Positions 13,130 to 33,564 of a stretch of 41,473 nucleotides of DNA are shown here, piece by piece (position 1 is the first letter of the stretch; every line of letters starts with the position of its first letter). Position numbers and translations under genes: made by a program. Source of the stretch: a virus. Under the pieces are notes generated by a model that saw only the letters and a program-made list of their open reading frames with translations, was not told where the DNA came from and did no database searches. The stretch covers positions 1 through 41,473 of IMG/VR virus record IMGVR_UViG_3300049215_000197; one strand, written 5' to 3'.

Positions 13130-14080
13130 TTATAGGTTTTCAGTTGAAAGAAGACGTGTGATCCAGTTATCATTAAGCAAGCGAGTTGCGAAAGGATACT
13201 TATAACCTACTGAGCCTCTTTGGTTTAAAGGATCGCTAGTTCCAGCAGAACCTAATGGTTTTACAATGAATTCCGCTTCTTTCGATCCAAGTTTTACAAC
13301 TCCATATGCTTCTTGTCCGAGGATAATAGAGTTATAAATAGGATATGAACCAGATGAGTCCGCGTATCCATTAGTAGATAGTAACCAGCGAACGTTATTA
13401 GTAGATCCCCACTCAGCTTCTAGTGCATCCATAGGATTAGGATAGTTAGCAGCTGATAAGAAGTCCGCGCAAGCTTCTAAGTCATTCTGGATATTTACAT
13501 CCATGAATCCCCAGTAACTAGATCTAACTGGACTAGTTGCAAATCTGTTTTCACCAGGAATTGGTTTAGTCATTAAGCGTGCATTGCCTAATCTAAGTGC
13601 TTTTACCGCAGTTTTAATATCTGGTGTTGTGATTTCTGTAGGAGTTTTAGAATTTGTACCATTAGTACAATAAATAGCCGAAGCTGTTGCCACCATCATA
13701 TTGCGAATTAAAGTGTCAAGAGTAAGCCCTAATTGCAATGAAAGTACACGTGTAGCTTCATTAAGAACTCTATCCTGTACAGTAAATTGAACTTGGTCAG
13801 TAATTACGACAAAGTTTCCGTACCACTTAATTTGTGTTGAGAAGTCAGTAACGGAAAGTGAATCCCCTGGAGGAGTAGTTCCATCCTGAATTGGAACAGT
13901 AGCAGCTGTAAGAGTGCTGTACCGTCTGAATATCATCTGATCGCCAGAATTAAGAGGAATAGTTCTCTTCTGTGCGAACATATCATAGATGTAGTAAGGT
14001 CTTGCTAAAGTAAGTAGAAGCCTATCGAAATAAGTTCTAACTTCTGGTGGGACCTGTGAAGTTGTTGTGATGTTAGCCAT
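13130..14080 (-). CDS. Major capsid protein, N4-gp56/HK97-fold family (316 aa)
   Basis: The N-terminal pattern YFDRLLL..ARPYYIYDMFAQKRTIPLNSGDQMIFRRY...L......DGTTP is typical of this family. It lies after the scaffold gene. Confidence 0.8.
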   Translation of the reverse strand: MANITTTSQVPPEVRTYFDRLLLTLARPYYIYDMFAQKRTIPLNSGDQMIFRRYSTLTAATVPIQDGTTPPGDSLSVTDFSTQIKWYGNFVVITDQVQFTVQDRVLNEATRVLSLQLGLTLDTLIRNMMVATASAIYCTNGTNSKTPTEITTPDIKTAVKALRLGNARLMTKPIPGENRFATSPVRSSYWGFMDVNIQNDLEACADFLSAANYPNPMDALEAEWGSTNNVRWLLSTNGYADSSGSYPIYNSIILGQEAYGVVKLGSKEAEFIVKPLGSAGTSDPLNQRGSVGYKYPFATRLLNDNWITRLLSTENL

Positions 14081-16636: not shown

Positions 16637-16909
16637 CTACCTCTCATGTCCATACTGTGTATTGTAATCTCTACTCATATGCCGTATGATATGAGCCTTG
16701 ACTTGCTCTTTAGCTTGCTTGTGTCTCATCTGCTCGTGTTCCATATGCTCTTTCATTGGTCCACCTGCGTTATAATTCGCCTGTACTCTTCTATGATATG
16801 GCAGAGCTTCATCTGCGGTCCTAGCCTGGTTATAATGCTGTAGATCCTTGCCAGCTTGTCGCATGTCATCTTGTCCCGCACCTACCTGTCCCCAGCCATC
16901 ATTATTCAT
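16637..16909 (-). CDS. Small His/Met/Gln-rich protein (90 aa)
   Basis: 1-nt overlap with the portal stop. Confidence 0.6.
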   Translation of the reverse strand: MNNDGWGQVGAGQDDMRQAGKDLQHYNQARTADEALPYHRRVQANYNAGGPMKEHMEHEQMRHKQAKEQVKAHIIRHMSRDYNTQYGHER

Positions 16910-24642: not shown

Positions 24643-24942
24643 ATGGCCGTAAGTACAAGGAAGATCAGCTCTAAAATTAAGTTCTACCGTCTTGATTCAA
24701 TTCTACCTACAGAGAACCAAGAGGTATTAGCCTATGTTAAATTCCTGGTTCATTCGCATCGTTCGGATGAAGACAGTACTGGAGAAATATTTAGATATGT
24801 ACCTACTGTTTACAGCAAAGAAAAAGGATTTAACATTAAAGATACAGTTACTGGTCAAGCCCTTTACATTCCTAATATCCTTGGCTGGACTCCTCTTCCT
24901 GATAAATTCCCTGACTACCTAATAGAGGAAGAAGATGAATAA
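24643..24942 (+). CDS. DUF551-like protein (about 99 aa; start moved to ATG 24643, which has a GGAG SD)
   Basis: The pattern ...LPTENQEVLAYV......ILGWTPLPDKFP resembles DUF551 (recalled from memory). Confidence 0.5.
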   Translation: MAVSTRKISSKIKFYRLDSILPTENQEVLAYVKFLVHSHRSDEDSTGEIFRYVPTVYSKEKGFNIKDTVTGQALYIPNILGWTPLPDKFPDYLIEEEDE

Positions 24943-25306
24943 CTTAAGGTACCTTATCGAGTTCAACCTAGACTTCGACAAAGATAAAGTGCACAAGTTC
25001 ACTACCTGGGCATTTGGTGACGACTTCAAAGACAAGAAGCTAGATGAAATAAGACAGCTATGGAACAAGATACACGGCCACCAGTTCAAGGTAGTACCCA
25101 ATGAGAACATAGCCGTAACTGTGCCTCATATGATAGAGTTATGGAAGCAAGACGGCGACCATGAGAAAGCCAATGCCATATGGCAGGAGCAAGACAAATC
25201 CGTAACCATGTCCGAGTGGAAGCAATTCTATGATGACAGGCTTACAGATCAGAGAGATAAGCAGAAGTATACAAATGAAGTAAGAAGCATAAGGAGTAAA
25301 AATTGA
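24935..25306 (+). CDS. Hypothetical protein (123 aa)
   Basis: ORF overlapping both neighbours by a few nt. Confidence 0.6.
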   Translation: MNNLRYLIEFNLDFDKDKVHKFTTWAFGDDFKDKKLDEIRQLWNKIHGHQFKVVPNENIAVTVPHMIELWKQDGDHEKANAIWQEQDKSVTMSEWKQFYDDRLTDQRDKQKYTNEVRSIRSKN

Positions 25307-25623
25307 TGTGCTGGAAGAGAATAGAAGACGAGTTACCCAATCCTGGAATGAAGGTGCTGGTGGAATTCGACGATGGAGAAAAGCAATACTTTGAAGTAGA
25401 AGAAGAAAAAGGAAGAATTCTTAATGAATTGAAATTTAGGCAGTATTCCACATCAGGTAATATTCCAAGAAATGATGTGCATTGCGCTAAGAATGAGCGA
25501 ATTAAATACTGGATGGAGGTGCCATTGAATGCATTTAAACCCAATTTCGGAACCCTCCTGTGCATGGGTTCATCCCCACTAAGCTTTACATATAAACCAT
25601 TAACCCAAAGCCGTTGCTACTAG
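25306..25623 (+). CDS. DUF551-like protein (105 aa)
   Basis: MCWKRIEDELPNPGMKVLVEF...IKYWMEVP. TGATG coupling to the upstream gene. Confidence 0.5.
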   Translation: MCWKRIEDELPNPGMKVLVEFDDGEKQYFEVEEEKGRILNELKFRQYSTSGNIPRNDVHCAKNERIKYWMEVPLNAFKPNFGTLLCMGSSPLSFTYKPLTQSRCY

Positions 25624-25630
25624 GAGAATT

Positions 25631-26029
25631 ATGCTAATAACAAGAAAAAATACAACTATTAACTTATTAAATGTAGATGCAATTACATCTACTAATGGAA
25701 TTACATCATGTCAAATTAATTTTTATATTGGAGATAAAGCTCATTACTTTGTATATGATACAAAAACTGAACGTGATTCCGACTTGGAATTCATCCTAGA
25801 AGCATGGGAGTCAGTAGAAGCTATTGAAGCTCACTACAACATTACGAATCGGCACTTAAACAAGTGGCTAGATGCCGACTGCCATACGCCTACCAATGAA
25901 CAGGAAGTGCGGGTTAAGCTAGCTGATAACCAGGAATTCGGTGCGGTATACAGACATGGGAAATTCTGCTTAAACTCCAGTGAATTAGCATATTTCTCAA
26001 ACGTTAAATATTGGAGAAGTGTATGCTAG
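25631..26029 (+). CDS. Two-domain paralog 1 (132 aa): MLxR-type N-domain plus a DUF551-like C-domain
   Basis: GGAG SD. The C-terminus ...VKYWRSVC and its junction sequence are shared with the next gene. Confidence 0.6.
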   Translation: MLITRKNTTINLLNVDAITSTNGITSCQINFYIGDKAHYFVYDTKTERDSDLEFILEAWESVEAIEAHYNITNRHLNKWLDADCHTPTNEQEVRVKLADNQEFGAVYRHGKFCLNSSELAYFSNVKYWRSVC

Positions 26030-26451
26030 TAAGACTTGATAATAACATTTTAGATATAAGTAATTTAGAAATTATTAGGCTTCAAGATACAACTAGTAGT
26101 GATAATGTTTACCTAAGCTTATTATTTAAGGATCACACAAGTTATTCATTTTATTACGCTGATAAAAAATTAGCCCAGTGCCACTTTGAATTCCTATGGA
26201 GTCAAATTAAGAAGTCAAATTATAACCATGTGGAATACGAAGAAAAAGCTGCGAAACCTAAAGAAGCACCTGAATGGATATCCGTTCATACAGCAATGCC
26301 CTCACAAGACTGTAAATGCTATATCCAATGCGAAGATGGGTACCAATATGCAGTAGTGTATGATTCCGACATAGAGAAATTCAAGACAAGGTTCTCTGAT
26401 GGGGATGACGACTACTTCATTAATGTAACTCATTGGAGGCCACGATGCTAG
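26023..26451 (+). CDS. Two-domain paralog 2 (142 aa)
   Basis: Starts MLVRLDNNILDISNLEII and ends ...VTHWRPRC. ATGCTAG overlap with the upstream stop. Confidence 0.6.
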   Translation: MLVRLDNNILDISNLEIIRLQDTTSSDNVYLSLLFKDHTSYSFYYADKKLAQCHFEFLWSQIKKSNYNHVEYEEKAAKPKEAPEWISVHTAMPSQDCKCYIQCEDGYQYAVVYDSDIEKFKTRFSDGDDDYFINVTHWRPRC

Positions 26452-26663
26452 TCAGAAACTTAGACAAGGTAATATGCCTGGACCATGTATTCGTCATGTC
26501 CAAGAGAGAATACAAGAAGCAAATCGGTTATGATGAGGTGGCTTATGCCATCTCATTTGCTTCTATTAGTGACTACGGAGTAGAAGAATGGGAGTGGGAC
26601 ACCCCTGAACAAAGAGATGCCGTATTCGAAGGCATATACAGCCAATGGGTCAAGAAGTATTAA
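26445..26663 (+). CDS. Paralog 3, N-domain only (72 aa)
   Basis: Starts MLVRNLDKVICLDHVFV. Has the same ATGCTAG junction. Confidence 0.55.
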   Translation: MLVRNLDKVICLDHVFVMSKREYKKQIGYDEVAYAISFASISDYGVEEWEWDTPEQRDAVFEGIYSQWVKKY

Positions 26664-26794
26664 GGCCAGTGCTTGTATATCAGCCTCAATACAAAGGCAA
26701 TGACGGCACCCATGATAAGGCATAGGTATATAGCCATTACTATGGTAAGTGCCGTGGTTACGTCTTGTAAATAGGTTACACTATATTCCTGCAT
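26660..26794 (-). CDS. Possible 44-aa single-TM peptide (MQEYSVTYLQDVTTALTIVMAIYLCLIMGAVIAFVLRLIYKHWP)
   Basis: Hand-translated. Starts 2 nt after the tRNA-Asn 3' end, so any SD would lie inside the tRNA. It fills the gap to the convergent gene. Confidence 0.3.
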   Translation of the reverse strand: MQEYSVTYLQDVTTALTIVMAIYLCLIMGAVIAFVLRLIYKHWP

Positions 26795-26795
26795 C

Positions 26796-26866
26796 TGCAC
26801 TACCAGGGCTCGAACCTGGGACCTTGAAATTAACAGTTTCCTGCTCTACCACTGAGCTATAGTGCA
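26796..26866 (-). tRNA. tRNA-Asn (anticodon GTT)
   Basis: Hand fold. Acceptor TGCACTA/TAGTGCA. D arm GCTC-AGTGGTA-GAGC. Anticodon loop CTGTTAA. T arm CCAGG-TTCGAGC-CCTGG. No encoded CCA. Confidence 0.85.
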
Positions 26867-26890
26867 ATAAATTACTCTAATTCCTTAATG

Positions 26891-27358
26891 TTACCATTGT
26901 GGTTCTGTTGAATCAATTATTCTGCTTCCCCAGTACTCATCGTCGCTGAAGTCGCCTGTCTCCTGAACTTCATTACCTCTCCTGTGAAGCAATTTCTTAA
27001 AGGATCTCGTCCGTAGTCTTGCTCGTATTTCTCTGCCCATCTTATCAGTTCCATCAAAATAATAGAAGGGTTCTTCCCACGGCTCACCCTCTTTTGCTTC
27101 ATACTCTTCTTCTTTCTTCTTAATCCGCTCATATACCTCCAGGAATTTAGCCTTCAGCTTCTGAAACTCTGCTGATCTAATTGGGTCATGCCTGCACTTG
27201 TATTCCATTTCCAGCACTATAAGGTAGTAACCCCATAGGTCATCGCTATCCTCGCCGAAACGAGGACATGGGTACCACAATAGGTCAGGAGTAAAGAATT
27301 GATAAATAGGAGGAGGTAATGCCGTAATGGTAGTTGCGGAATCAGGAATTGCTTTCAT
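26891..27358 (-). CDS. Hypothetical acidic protein (155 aa; start moved to ATG 27358, which has a GGAGG SD)
   Basis: TTGGAGGTGT-ATG. No motif recognised. Confidence 0.65.
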   Translation of the reverse strand: MKAIPDSATTITALPPPIYQFFTPDLLWYPCPRFGEDSDDLWGYYLIVLEMEYKCRHDPIRSAEFQKLKAKFLEVYERIKKKEEEYEAKEGEPWEEPFYYFDGTDKMGREIRARLRTRSFKKLLHRRGNEVQETGDFSDDEYWGSRIIDSTEPQW

Positions 27359-27459
27359 ACACCTCCAATGAAAAACCCGCACAACACAATGTCATGCGGG
27401 CAAAGGAATCTCCAATGAATTAATGAAGAGTTACGTTCTTCTTCTTCAACATATGACAT
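27355..27459 (-). CDS. Possible 34-aa upstream ORF (MSYVEEEERNSSLIHWRFLCPHDIVLCGFFIGGV) spanning the 27371-27400 terminator and ending in a TATGA overlap with the next gene
   Basis: Hand-translated. Weak SD. Confidence 0.3.
   Translation of the reverse strand: MSYVEEEERNSSLIHWRFLCPHDIVLCGFFIGGV
27371..27400 (-). terminator. Rho-independent terminator (leftward) immediately upstream of the SD of 26891..27358
   Basis: Minus-sense CCCGCA-tgacattgtgttg-TGCGGG followed by TTTTTC, then ATTGGAGGTGTATG. Confidence 0.5.
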
Positions 27460-27486
27460 CCCGTAATTTATGTCATCATTTTCTTT

Positions 27487-27507
27487 CTTAATGGAATCTT
27501 AATCTAT
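27487..27507. repeat. 21-nt direct repeat, copy 1 (cttaatggaatcttaatctat); contains CTTAAT twice
   Basis: 19/21 identical to 27846..27866. Confidence 0.8.
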
Positions 27508-27526
27508 GTACACAGATTTGTGTACA
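27507..27526. promoter_or_regulatory. Perfect 8-4-8 inverted repeat TGTACACA-gatt-TGTGTACA (candidate operator)
   Basis: Read directly. Abuts repeat copy 1 and a terminator. Confidence 0.4.
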
Positions 27527-27527
27527 G

Positions 27528-27565
27528 AAAAAGTAAGCCCCCAAGGTGACTGAATCCTTGAGGGC
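27528..27565 (-). terminator. Rho-independent terminator (leftward), paralogous module A
   Basis: Minus-sense GCCCTCAAGG-attcagtca-CCTTGGGGGC followed by TTACTTTTTC. One G-U pair that exists only in minus sense. Confidence 0.65.
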
Positions 27566-27625
27566 TACAACTCAAAAGGCAGAGGAAACATTACCTATGC
27601 GCCTACAGAATACAAAATGCCGTAT

Positions 27626-27661
27626 AAAAAGTAAACCCCCTAGCGCGTAAACACTAGAGGG
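27626..27661 (-). terminator. Rho-independent terminator (leftward), paralogous module B
   Basis: Minus-sense CCCTCTAG-tgtttacgcg-CTAGGGGG followed by TTTACTTTTTATAC. It shares the flanks (AAAAAGTAA-CCCCC...GAGGGCT) and the G-U position with module A. Confidence 0.65.
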
Positions 27662-27845
27662 CTCACCCTATGAATGGTTTTGGACAGAAGAATTTTACGC
27701 TTCTTCTGCAACCTCATCCTACATAATTCCGTATTTAAAGAGAAATATATTCATATCACTTTGAATATAAGGTATTTATGAACCAGGTAACATTATGTGA
27801 CGAATTCACACATCTAATGTGCGGATTTGACACATGAGCTCATAT

Positions 27846-27866
27846 CTTAATCGGATCTTAATCTAT
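27846..27866. repeat. 21-nt direct repeat, copy 2 (cttaatcggatcttaatctat)
   Basis: 19/21 identical to 27487..27507. A 10-bp palindrome ATGAGCTCAT lies just upstream. Confidence 0.8.
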
Positions 27867-28202
27867 TATGATACAGAACTAAGGTGCGGGCATCACGCAT
27901 GTGAGAAGGAGAATAGGTCCTATATACTTAAATGGTTCTGCCTTAGTCACTTGAATTATTAACTAGGTTTGGAAAAATTTTCAGTGACATTAGGTAATAG
28001 GTATCACGTACTCCCTATGGGGCAAGGGGGGTCTTGTGCCTATCAATTTAAAGTTTTAATTACTGCATTACAGGCCCATAGAGAGCATGACGCACACGCT
28101 AGGCTATAGATACAAAGGGCAGCAATAGAGGCTGCAACCTAGGGCATTATAGCGCGAATTAGGGTGGGTCATAATCTCCATTATGGTTAAACACCGCTCA
28201 CG

Positions 28203-28610
28203 CTATTGTGTGAGCTCATTGGGTGTGGCATAGTTGACAACGTTGACTTGCAACTGACCCTTTACATCGGCTTTAAGTTCTTGCTTGTCCGACCAGCCGT
28301 ACCTGTTGCTCATGTTATAGTACCATGTTCGGCTATTACCTAGGCAACTCCCTAGTGCTTGCCTTTTACCTATGTCTTCCCACATGGCTTTCCCTTCCTG
28401 CAATGCAAGTTCAAAGACAGAATTTGAGAACTCATCAGGGTATTTGCTAAACCATTCTTTGATAGTTTTGTAGCATAACCCCCCAAACGAATCGACACTA
28501 TATCCGCCCCGCACATGAGTGCATAGCTCCTTAAATAGCTCAGCTCTCATTTCCTTGTCAGCTTCTAGTTTAGCCACCTTCTCTTCATAAGTCATCTTTT
28601 CATGTTTCAT
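28203..28610 (-). CDS. Terminase-small-subunit-like HTH protein (135 aa)
   Basis: The pattern ...GGYSVDSFGGLCYKTIKEWFSKYPDEFSNSVFELALQEGKAMWE...GNSRTWYYNMSNRYGWSDKQE resembles HTH-type TerS proteins (recalled from memory). It lies about 6 kb from terL. Confidence 0.45.
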   Translation of the reverse strand: MKHEKMTYEEKVAKLEADKEMRAELFKELCTHVRGGYSVDSFGGLCYKTIKEWFSKYPDEFSNSVFELALQEGKAMWEDIGKRQALGSCLGNSRTWYYNMSNRYGWSDKQELKADVKGQLQVNVVNYATPNELTQ

Positions 28611-31157: not shown

Positions 31158-31393
31158 TGGGCAAATACAAAGCCAAGGAAATTAAATACGTGGGGACTCA
31201 TGCAATTAGTGCAAGGGTTCCTCATGACTTATATGTCATGTTCAAGACACTGTGCATCGAGAACGGCATATCTATCAACGAAGGAATAGTGCAGTATTTG
31301 CGCTACCTTAAGTCACATCATAAAAGCATAAGGGAGGTACACAATGAGTCAACAGTTAGCGATTTCGAACTGGATGGGCGCAAGTCTCCATGA
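31157..31393 (+). CDS. Ribbon-helix-helix (Arc/CopG-like) DNA-binding protein (78 aa). Possible Xis or regulator.
   Basis: The pattern ISARVPHDLYVMFKTLCIENGISINEGIVQYL fits a beta-alpha-alpha RHH. It lies immediately upstream of the recombinase. Confidence 0.5.
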   Translation: MGKYKAKEIKYVGTHAISARVPHDLYVMFKTLCIENGISINEGIVQYLRYLKSHHKSIREVHNESTVSDFELDGRKSP

Positions 31394-32249
31394 GTTCACT
31401 AGCCATTTAATGCTTGAGAAGTCAGCTCCTACAGTTGAAGCCTACCGTTATGACATAGGCAGGTTCTTAGAATTCCTCATGGAAAAGAAAGTGAGACGTG
31501 CGGGACACATCAAAGCTAGCCATGTGGTTCAGTATCTAGGGTTCTGCAAGCAAGGGGGCTCGGCTGATGCCAGTATCAATAGATACTACATGGCTATAAG
31601 GAATTACTGTAATTTCCTGATGAGAACAGGGGCTATAGAGAAGGAGTTCTGCCGTGATGTGCCTGTACCTAAGCTCAGTGTTGTAGCCCCTAGGATACCA
31701 ACACGTGAAGAGGTGATGCGGATACTAGCCCAGCCCGATGTAACTACCGAATTGGGATGCCGAGATAAGGCTATACTTGAGCTACTTTATAGCTCAGGTT
31801 TGAGGTCTAGTGAGATATGTGACCTAGAACTGCACCATTTGACTCAGGACAGCGTAACGGTGTTGTGCGGTAAGAGGGGTAAGACCCGCACCGTACCTAT
31901 CACCACGGCAGCCTATGACAGTATAATGGCCTATGTCTTAAATTTCAGAGGGAGACAGAAAGGTTACTTATTTGTAACCATAATGGGTAAGCAAATGCGC
32001 AGGCAAAAGCTATGCGCTATCGTAGAGAAGTACGCCACTAACGCGGGAGTTGAGGCCGTGACCACTCACACCCTACGGCATACATGTGCCACGCATCTAT
32101 TGGATCAAGGCGCAGGGCTTAGGTTCATACAAGAGATACTAGGACACAAAAGCATTGCTTCAACTGAGAGGTATACGCATCTCTCTAGCGAGTCAATGAA
32201 AAGCATGTTTAAAACATTTCACCCAAGGCAGGAGGTAGCGCATGGATGA
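31344..32249 (+). CDS. Tyrosine recombinase, XerC/XerD-type (301 aa)
   Basis: SAM-like N-domain (TVEAYRYDIGRFLEFL). Catalytic residues are all present: R in SGLRSSE, HTLRH, ILGH, and Y in TERYTHL. Strong AGGGAGG SD. Confidence 0.85.
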   Translation: MSQQLAISNWMGASLHEFTSHLMLEKSAPTVEAYRYDIGRFLEFLMEKKVRRAGHIKASHVVQYLGFCKQGGSADASINRYYMAIRNYCNFLMRTGAIEKEFCRDVPVPKLSVVAPRIPTREEVMRILAQPDVTTELGCRDKAILELLYSSGLRSSEICDLELHHLTQDSVTVLCGKRGKTRTVPITTAAYDSIMAYVLNFRGRQKGYLFVTIMGKQMRRQKLCAIVEKYATNAGVEAVTTHTLRHTCATHLLDQGAGLRFIQEILGHKSIASTERYTHLSSESMKSMFKTFHPRQEVAHG

Positions 32250-32604: not shown

Positions 32605-32858
32605 TGGACGAAGATTACACAGATAGAGAGAAATTAGAGAAGTACAAAAGCAAAGTATGGCTTGCCGATGTAGCTTTTCAAGTAGCACATGCTACTAATG
32701 TGGATGACCGAGATGAAATATTAGATGTCCACTTCACAGCTACAATATGGAAGTTAACAATGTTAATTAAAACATTTGCAGTACTTGAAGGTGATGAGCA
32801 AATTGATTCACTTTTTGAATGCATTAAGGAGGCAATAAATGTCAGTGATGTCAACTAA
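32604..32858 (+). CDS. Hypothetical acidic protein (84 aa)
   Basis: TAATG coupling. Confidence 0.6.
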   Translation: MDEDYTDREKLEKYKSKVWLADVAFQVAHATNVDDRDEILDVHFTATIWKLTMLIKTFAVLEGDEQIDSLFECIKEAINVSDVN

Positions 32859-33564
32859 AGATTACGAACTATTTAAGTTACGTAATGATAATAGAGAAAA
32901 GATAGATAAGAACCATTTAAGCAGAATGGTTGAATCGTTAAGAGATAAGAACTTATTATATCTAAAGCCAATATTAGTTAACTCTAAATATGAGATAATA
33001 GATGGACAACATAGATTCTTAGCTGCTAAAGAATTAGGAATTGAACTATATTATGAAGTAAGTGATGAAATAGAAGCTAAAGATTTAATACAAATGAATC
33101 TTAGTTTACAATGGAAATTACATGACTACTTAAATTTCTATGTAAAGAATGGATATCCAGAATATATTAAGTTGAATAACTATGTTAAATCAAGTGGAGT
33201 ACATTTAAGAAATTGTATCGGTATTGGATATGGTAATTCCCATGATACAATAAATGAATTCCGAGCAGGTAAATATGTATTTAATATGGATCAATTTGAA
33301 GATAATATATTTCTAATTAATAAAACAATTGAAACTATAAATAGATATGCAGGGAAATTTGAATTTACTAAGTCACTTAAATTTTGGAGGGCATTAATAA
33401 TTCTATTTGACCACCCATCATTTAATGAAGAGATTTGGATAGCACGTCTAACTAAATATGTATACAGAATACAAGTAAAAGTTTCAACTCTTGAATATTG
33501 TAAATTATTTCAAGATATATTTAATAAGAACAATGCTGATAAAGTTGACCTAACTTGTAACTAA
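32839..33564 (+). CDS. ParB/sulfiredoxin-fold (DGQHR motif) protein (241 aa), markedly AT-rich
   Basis: PILVNSKYEIIDGQHRFLAAKELG is the ParB N-terminal/DGQHR signature. Confidence 0.6.
   Translation: MSVMSTKDYELFKLRNDNREKIDKNHLSRMVESLRDKNLLYLKPILVNSKYEIIDGQHRFLAAKELGIELYYEVSDEIEAKDLIQMNLSLQWKLHDYLNFYVKNGYPEYIKLNNYVKSSGVHLRNCIGIGYGNSHDTINEFRAGKYVFNMDQFEDNIFLINKTIETINRYAGKFEFTKSLKFWRALIILFDHPSFNEEIWIARLTKYVYRIQVKVSTLEYCKLFQDIFNKNNADKVDLTCN

Follow-up and report, generated by a model that had tools for sequence, protein, structure and literature searches.

What function can be assigned to 844 nucleotides (nt) of phage DNA that carry no gene is the question raised by positions 27359–28202 of IMG/VR virus record IMGVR_UViG_3300049215_000197, the whole 41,473-nt stretch of which we refer to as the window. 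This region follows a gene for a small terminase subunit (TerS), and the original prediction offered three readings for it, namely non-coding RNA, a pac/cos packaging site or an integrase attachment site (attP) with arm-type repeats. As had been predicted, no open reading frame (ORF) of 60 amino acids (aa) or more is present in any of the six frames, the longest measuring 34–46 aa. Hidden coding potential in the gap was ruled out, as tblastx against relatives showed no conservation inside it. Here we show that the ORF-free stretch is a composite of one conserved element, termed element E, and a lineage-specific remainder, and we present element E as a candidate for the site at which terminase recognizes and cuts the phage DNA, most simply a cos site.

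Comparison of the gap with the first relatives by blastn and tblastx gave no similarity past the 3′ end of TerS, and the region matched cultured phages at tRNAs only or not at all. Element E emerged when the gaps were lined up by eye from the TerS stop codon, which yielded a 7-sequence profile and then a 32-sequence profile. The 7-sequence profile matched every relative, and with the 32-sequence profile the number of unique related metagenome contigs that carry the element came to about 110; it always lies 70–170 nt past TerS and on the same strand (best nhmmer E-value 1e-26). In the window, element E is conserved non-coding DNA at 27907–28070 on the minus strand (nhmmer E-value 2e-15). It is the sole non-coding element common to the relatives, the rest of the gap not being conserved, and its consensus had no match among 50,697 phage records, mostly of cultured phages. 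RNAalifold returned 0 consensus pairs in element E across 32 relatives, and in Rfam 15 nothing but a tRNA-Asn reached its gathering score, the matches at permissive thresholds being sub-threshold and chance-like. The absence of consensus pairs and of an Rfam match indicates that element E acts at the DNA level. The GC-rich hairpins originally placed at 28000–28140 are weak as RNA hairpins (z −1 to −1.8), but they overlap this only conserved element.

Four segments make up element E. The first is an upstream box and the second a core rich in G+C that contains TTGCCCC; a TCA|GGACC box with an A5T5 tract behind it comes third, and 2–4 genome-specific iterons come last. Read along the TerS strand, the consensus runs from TTAAAGATTGAAATTGTCTA across about 7 nt to AAGGGGnTTGCCCCnTAnAGGG, then across about 12 nt to TTTCA, after which it continues as GGACCnCAC n AAAAATTTTTCC AAnnnnAGG..., with the strongest conservation at TTGCCCC, TCAGGACC and A5T5. 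Past the A/T tract, most relatives carry 2–4 tandem copies of T5-7-CCAA-N4-(A/C)GG-N3 at a spacing of about 21 nt, the variable part of which is the same within a genome and different between genomes. The window's parts all lie on the minus strand. The upstream box ATTAAAACTTTAAATTGATAGG (28039–28060), for which the family consensus is TTAAAGATTGAAATTGTCTA, is defined by conserved columns in the 32- and 61-sequence alignments, and the G+C-rich core CCCCCCTTGCCCCATAGGGAG (28011–28031) by peak information content in the 61-sequence alignment, with C70 and C71 invariant in alignment A3. The A/T tract GAAAATTTTTCC (27971–27982) is likewise an information-content peak, in which A110, A112, T114, T116, T117 and C119 are nearly invariant in alignment A3; by analogy with the I2 segment of phage lambda, we propose that it forms a static bend. 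Three degenerate iteron-like units, TTTTTCCAAACCTAGTTAA, TAATTCAAGTGACTAAGGCAG and AACCATTTAAGTATATAGGACC, about 21 nt apart (27916–27977), were read by eye and are weak. A second motif, TTTACCTAAGTMCTTAACAnTCAAnnACTTA, stands 65–155 nt past the break described below in 6 of 69 lineages (L005, L008, L020, L039, L080 and L109) and could serve as a promoter or bind a protein; its counterpart in the window, TTTAAGTATATAGG at about 27919–27932, is faint.

Contigs of several relatives break off at one column of this alignment. The short-read contigs L073 (...TTGATA|), L237 (...TTGATA|) and L230 (...GTTCA|) end exactly there and L106 ends 3 nt before it, the four coming from different samples and lineages; siblings of L237 and L230 read through, continuing GACC and GGACC, respectively. 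With 43 contig ends within about 1.3 kb downstream, 0.17 would be expected per 5-nt interval, and by our own estimate four ends in some such interval have a chance of <0.01 after correction for scanning, a long-read junction at the column being extra. This junction is found in a 242-kb long-read contig of an Acidobacteriaceae metagenome-assembled genome (MAG; CAWDQB010000068), which begins inside TerS, contains one full related phage genome and then a 352-nt repeat (L008 2–353 = L007 10175–10526), and switches abruptly from phage to DNA of about 60% G+C at the column at which L073, L237 and L230 end. The switch, near position 42,073 of the MAG contig, falls at ...CCCTATTCA|, where the phage continues GAACCC..., inside element E and 10 nt ahead of the A/T tract. 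The foreign DNA (L007 10527–10913) opens in frame, mid-gene, in the C-terminal part of an efflux-adaptor gene, the translation of which reads like an RND efflux membrane-fusion protein. The MAG contig is either a chimera or a gene-disrupting insertion, and a chimera joined at a physical end of the DNA would be expected to show such a switch from phage to foreign DNA at the common column. By homology to ...TCA|GGACC... in the relatives, the predicted double-strand end of the window lies at 27991–27994, with the cut at 27993|27992 ± 2 nt, the uncertainty reflecting divergence of the window's own box (TTACC|TAATG); the A/T tract begins 10–11 nt after the break. Upstream of the break, the short-read contigs L111, L112 and L113 start in TerS at a YPEEF motif, 359–385 nt from the break and at most 8 nt apart. 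L008 also starts in TerS, so that four such starts span 353–385 nt upstream; the cluster could mark the left boundary of a terminal repeat, or else a junction in a strain mosaic.

Together, the three contig ends, the fourth 3 nt earlier and the long-read junction at the same column are an indirect sign of a fixed DNA end, and we infer that the contigs end where terminase cuts and that the DNA ends at the site are cohesive. Short-read contigs should break only where almost no molecules span a position, so cohesive ends fit better than pac or terminal repeats: cuts at pac are made in a minority of molecules, and headful packaging from pac would not readily explain the contig stops, nor would direct terminal repeats, the boundary of which is spanned in the other copy. 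In the mechanism that we propose, the N-terminal DNA-binding part of TerS would bind the phased, about 21-nt iterons, the conserved A/T tract would bend the DNA, and the bend would position the large terminase subunit (TerL) to cut TCA|GGACC 10–11 nt ahead of the A/T tract, at 27993|27992 in the window. The virion chromosome would then start with the iterons, run on into accessory, TerL and head genes and end with the TerS gene, and transcription from the TerS promoter would run across the joined site. We consider it probable, if by no comfortable margin of certainty, that element E is a terminase recognition and cleavage site of this kind.

TerS (28203–28610, minus strand, 135 aa) heads a leftward transcription unit and matches, by tblastn at 3e-7, gene 1 of Pseudomonas phage AH02, which is annotated as the terminase small subunit and lies directly upstream of the AH02 TerL gene. 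Its AlphaFold2 model is all-helical (pLDDT 78.7), with Sf6 TerS (3hef) as the best, weak Foldseek match (probability 0.47), and although no Pfam or NCBIfam family matched, the TerS family phrog_309 weakly matches 6 of 40 family members and is the commonest weak match among them. These results support the view that 28203–28610 encodes a real small-terminase homologue resembling Sf6 gp1, in keeping with the TerS-like label of the original prediction. We found 96 homologues at 42–56% identity, mostly on contigs of about 40 kb. Among four related contigs (L104, L109, L108 and L110), two carry TerS variants that lack the conserved C terminus past ...NMANR (residue 103) and the two others end at that very codon, making residue 103 a recurrent deletion or variation boundary.

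TerS and the iterons also vary together. After correction for the C-terminal part of TerS, similarity between iterons correlates with similarity between the TerS N-terminal parts (partial r 0.20, permutation p 0.007, n = 42), and does so although the C-terminal part is physically nearer the iterons; the corresponding value against the integrase is a partial r of −0.11 (n = 16). This pattern is consistent with binding of the iterons by TerS, which we infer from the sequences.

Several observations weigh against a packaging cut at element E. The co-variation is of modest size and physical linkage confounds it, and in the 16-lineage subset the N-terminal part of TerS does no better than the C-terminal part. 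The portal resembles that of P22 and TerS that of Sf6, and both types occur in headful packagers. Branch points of an assembly graph, for example between attP and attR or among recombinant strains, can likewise produce contig ends, and the 352-nt overlap of the MAG contig together with the three contig starts 359–385 nt upstream is what a short direct terminal repeat would be expected to give. Most contigs, the window included, read straight through the break, and in the window both the TCA|GGACC box and the iterons are degenerate. Dyad symmetry at the break, scored with 9-nt arms and 6–8 nt spacers, is at background (mean complementarity 2.6–3.8 of 9). Contigs that start at the break, as the other chromosome end would, were absent from two DNA-pattern scans of IMG/VR and from the contigs reached through TerL homologues, and additional TerS look-ups gave contigs that read through the break. 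RNA-ligase homologues, tried as a further route to such contigs, belonged to other phages.

Of the three readings first offered, pac/cos is the best supported, through element E and the contig ends that accumulate at one column of it. The features stressed in the original prediction are not what supports it: terminators follow the site in only 2 of 49 lineages, and the remaining gap has no nucleotide similarity to relatives.

Could element E instead serve the phage integrase? In that case it would be the attP or resolution site of a XerC/D-like integrase and the break the edge of a crossover core, the assembly graph would branch between integrated and free forms or integrase-made recombinants, and the MAG contig would be a true Acidobacteriaceae lysogen. 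The tyrosine integrase is conserved across the phage family and present in every relative, and the switch to foreign DNA lies exactly at the break column. Contig names suggest that many relatives come from soil, peat or groundwater, which we take as settings where Acidobacteria are common, and the tRNAs of the family (Ile-TAT, Ile-AAT, Asn and Tyr), which serve A/T-rich codons, would be of use to a phage of 39% G+C in a host of 60% G+C. One lineage, moreover, has HTH_3 and HTH_17 (excisionase-like) genes just past element E. The integrase itself fits poorly, however. Encoded at 31344–32249 on the plus strand, it has 301 aa and only the SAM-like core-binding and catalytic domains (Phage_int_SAM_1 and Phage_integrase in Pfam), with profile matches spanning residues 24–293 and leaving no room for an arm-binding domain that could read the iterons. 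Its gene is 3.3 kb off, inside an operon in which it overlaps its neighbours, without adjoining non-coding DNA; with the ParB-like gene nearby (32839–33564, plus strand), it resembles a resolution or partition pair more than a classic int–attP module. Nor does the break show inverted core-type sites at a 6–8 bp spacer, and the iterons vary with TerS rather than with the integrase. The foreign DNA opens mid-gene and differs by 20% in G+C, a close relative occurs in 1 of 185,579 species genomes (one genome per species), and no second host junction turned up either among these genomes or among the roughly 110 contigs, no attL having been found. The attP with arm-type repeats of the original prediction is weakened accordingly, and we regard an attP or resolution site here as unlikely. 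Equally, it seems improbable to us that element E is a XerC/D-like recombination site in place of a packaging site and the Acidobacteriaceae contig a true lysogen. Were it so, a phage family of 39–42% G+C would live in hosts of about 60% G+C with its own tRNAs for A/T-rich codons to cope, and would integrate within a gene at a hairpin-flanked, asymmetric site without arm-type integrase binding.

A direct terminal repeat of about 350–385 bp, running from mid-TerS to the break and duplicated at packaging as in T7-like phages, would make the site its right boundary. The long-read contig starts 352 nt ahead of the site and ends there after one full genome, as such a repeat would have it, and the three short-read contigs that start 359–385 nt upstream, at most 8 nt apart in the TerS frame, come from different lineages. 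Yet short-read contigs should read through a boundary that is spanned in the other copy, and four stop. The starts in TerS do not cluster clearly beyond chance expectation, and they fall at the conserved YPEEF motif, a branching point for mixed strains; the long-read contig begins 15 codons away from the other three, and a repeat that starts inside an essential ORF would be unusual. We therefore hold a terminal repeat to be an unlikely account of the break.

A replication origin is very unlikely. On that reading the iterons would be initiator-binding sites, the A/T tract the unwinding element and the G+C-rich core a structural one, and iteron-type origins do typically have phased 21-nt iterons next to an A/T tract. 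The tract is just 10–12 bp, however, double-strand ends at one nucleotide would be left unexplained, and element E accompanies TerS in every relative, far removed from the helicase and the other replication genes at 34–38 kb.

The remainder of the ORF-free stretch holds the features that first drew attention to it, and every feature listed in the original prediction was found in its place, to within a few bases. Three leftward terminators, all on the minus strand, fold into strong hairpins followed by U-runs: T1 at 27626–27661 (−26.5 kcal/mol, z −5.8), its paralogue T2 at 27528–27565 (−19.7 kcal/mol, z −3.4) and T3 at 27375–27401 (−17.8 kcal/mol, z −5.7). The duplication of T1 and T2 is confirmed by a common 18-nt flank, AAAAAGTAA(G/A)CCCCC, which occurs at these two sites only in the whole genome against 0.1 expected by chance. 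The direct repeat reported as 21 nt is really 22 nt long, with copies on the plus strand at 27486–27507 (TCTTAATGGAATCTTAATCTAT) and 27845–27866 (TCTTAATCGGATCTTAATCTAT) that are identical at 20 of 22 positions (0.02 expected by chance), and it is absent from IMG/VR. The first copy abuts a perfect 8-4-8 (alternatively 7-6-7) palindrome, TGTACACA-gatt-TGTGTACA, at 27507–27526, and the second abuts the 10-bp palindrome ATGAGCTCAT at 27834–27843; the two repeats, each beside a palindrome, bracket T1 and T2. The inverted repeat ATGACAT-N10-ATGTCAT lies at 27453–27476. Perfect inverted repeats with arms of at least 8 nt number 3 in the region; shuffled sequences give 0.39 and the genome as a whole 0.45 per 844 nt, so that the excess is modest. 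Taken singly, the 10-bp palindrome and the 7-N10-7 repeat come, by our own estimate, close to what chance would give.

Under a strict terminator criterion, terminators follow element E in 2 of 49 lineages, which makes T1, T2 and T3, the 22-nt repeats and the palindromes lineage-specific, and the simplest reading of 27359–27906 would be lineage-specific regulatory DNA. The hairpins and U-runs suggest that T1, T2 and T3 act as transcription terminators. T1 and T2 would end the TerS transcript once it has passed the packaging site. T3 stands 8 nt ahead of the Shine–Dalgarno sequence (GGAGGTG) of a 155-aa gene, in a leader or attenuator position. Further upstream on the minus strand, a promoter-like ATGACA-17-TATGTT (27448–27476, 9/12 match) is overlapped by the operator-like ATGACAT-N10-ATGTCAT repeat; a sigma-70 promoter scan of the region found 7 candidates against 11.4 expected, not above chance. 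The promoter- and operator-like inverted repeat and T3 would together form a regulated leader for the 155-aa gene and the tRNA-Asn gene that follows it. The 155-aa gene (26891–27358, minus strand, ATG at 27358) has no assigned function and forms, with tRNA-Asn (26794–26867, minus strand; the gene that reaches its Rfam threshold), a downstream unit at 26794–27358, which, unlike in most relatives, then meets a convergent rightward cassette. A sub-threshold Rfam match to His_leader at 27627–27781 on the minus strand (29.7 bits against a gathering score of 49, E-value 0.029) covers an 11-codon ORF (MNIFLFKYGIM), a hairpin at 27685–27708 and T1, and is probably driven by T1. The distance of about 540 nt between the TerS stop and strong terminators, the excess of short inverted repeats and the His_leader match might suggest that one or several leftward non-coding RNAs are made here, or that the TerS mRNA has a long structured 3′ untranslated region ending at T1/T2. 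Such an RNA is very improbable and not supported: the His_leader match is terminator-driven and below its gathering score, the Rfam and RNAalifold checks came back empty, nothing outside element E is conserved, and 47 of 49 lineages lack the terminators together with all the DNA that separates them from element E.

Positions 1–127 of the window are exactly repeated at 41347–41473, as expected of the assembly overlap of a circular or concatemeric genome, and the window is therefore a complete, circularly assembled phage genome with a true unit of 41,346 bp; at least 12.4 kb of it is identical to part of a 41,342-nt Logan contig from run ERR9963788. Among the relatives, a 111-kb metagenome contig (JGI24890J29729_1000045; L065, L066 and L069) carries three TerS copies spaced exactly 40,332 nt apart and is a concatemeric assembly of a single phage genome. 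The window phage is siphovirus-like. Profile searches of the window proteins placed the major head protein (13130–14080), the portal (16909–18870) and TerL (20851–22182) in leftward orientation, TerL lying 6 kb beyond TerS on the same strand, with an RNA ligase gene and two tRNA-like genes between TerL and the rightward block at 24607–26663. On the other side of TerS, a 245-bp divergent gap leads into a rightward early operon that includes the tyrosine integrase and ParB-like genes, and separate later blocks encode RusA, a DnaB-like helicase, an exonuclease and Erf. This order (integrase ... TerS, ORF-poor gap, variable small genes, RNA ligase, tRNAs, TerL) is kept in the relatives, with TerL identities of up to 81–86%.

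Some details of the late region differ among family members. Rightward blocks at 19022–20400 and 24607–26663, both on the plus strand and one gene of which has a DUF551 domain, break the otherwise leftward late region of the window and resemble accessory cassettes acquired by insertion; matched genes from TerS to TerL all share a single strand in the relatives examined. One tRNA-like gene (22522–22593, minus strand) has a 4-base anticodon (cgat) according to ARAGORN, with no amino acid assigned, and falls below the Rfam gathering score, and at the same spot just upstream of TerL the relatives have 1–4 ordinary tRNAs (Ile-TAT, Ile-AAT, Asn, Tyr and Asp), which, Asp excepted, read A/T-rich codons. 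Several close TerL homologues (P0233, P0240, P0252 and P0258) are 586–768 aa long against 443, with Pfam intein-splicing, Hint or LAGLIDADG domains, and are intein-bearing terminases within the family.

If element E is the packaging site, it provides a nucleotide-level prediction of the chromosome ends and of the packaging signal for a widespread phage family without a close cultured relative. The matched TerS N-terminal domains and iteron variants would then form a natural series for how small terminases read DNA. The analysis is also an example of how pile-ups of contig ends across public assemblies can place phage termini without reads. For annotation, the striking terminators and palindromes are lineage-specific and are not to be read as the functional core of the region.

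Comparison with known systems places these parts as follows. T1, T2 and T3 resemble the tandem and leader terminators of phage operons in their G+C-rich stems and U-runs, and T3, between a promoter-like site and a ribosome-binding site, in its attenuator position; they differ in being lineage-restricted, and neither an antiterminator gene nor a leader peptide was identified with them. With the attP sites of tyrosine integrases (lambda attP and dif/lox-type sites), element E shares a conserved core, flanking repeated protein sites, a bend-prone A/T tract and an integrase gene in every relative, but its repeats are one-sided, inverted core sites are absent, the integrase gene is 3.3 kb away and there is one possible host junction.

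Headful pac systems (P22, Sf6 and SPP1) offer a parallel in the Sf6-like TerS fold, the P22-like portal and the recognition site near TerS, and SPP1 pacL and pacR are also repeated, intrinsically bent DNA bound by TerS. A concatemer is cut at pac a single time, however, and imprecisely so in P22 and Sf6; such cuts should not halt short-read assemblies at a single nucleotide.

The closest counterpart of the proposed packaging site is lambda cos (cosQ–cosN–I2–cosB), of which type element E would be a further example in a family without a close cultured relative. In lambda, the N-terminal domain of TerS binds three repeats (R3, R2 and R1) of cosB, and I2 is an A/T-rich, poly-dA/poly-dT static bend between these repeats and the nick site, the spacing of which sets nick accuracy (PMC4856287). 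The two sites differ in that they share no sequence similarity, the repeats of element E are direct, tandem and about 21 nt apart, and TerS here is Sf6-like rather than Nu1-like; lambda cosN is also partly symmetric, whereas no dyad was seen at the cut in element E with the spacers tested. Both adjoin the small-terminase gene and have a conserved cut position, a predicted one in element E, with an A/T tract within about 10–40 bp of the cut and 2–4 repeated sites on one side only; as in lambda, the repeat-bearing end would lead into terminase and head genes and late transcription would cross the joined site. The lambda site lies upstream of TerS and element E downstream of it, which would give the unusual layout of TerS and TerL at opposite ends of the virion DNA, with 4–7 kb of accessory genes and tRNAs between the two genes.

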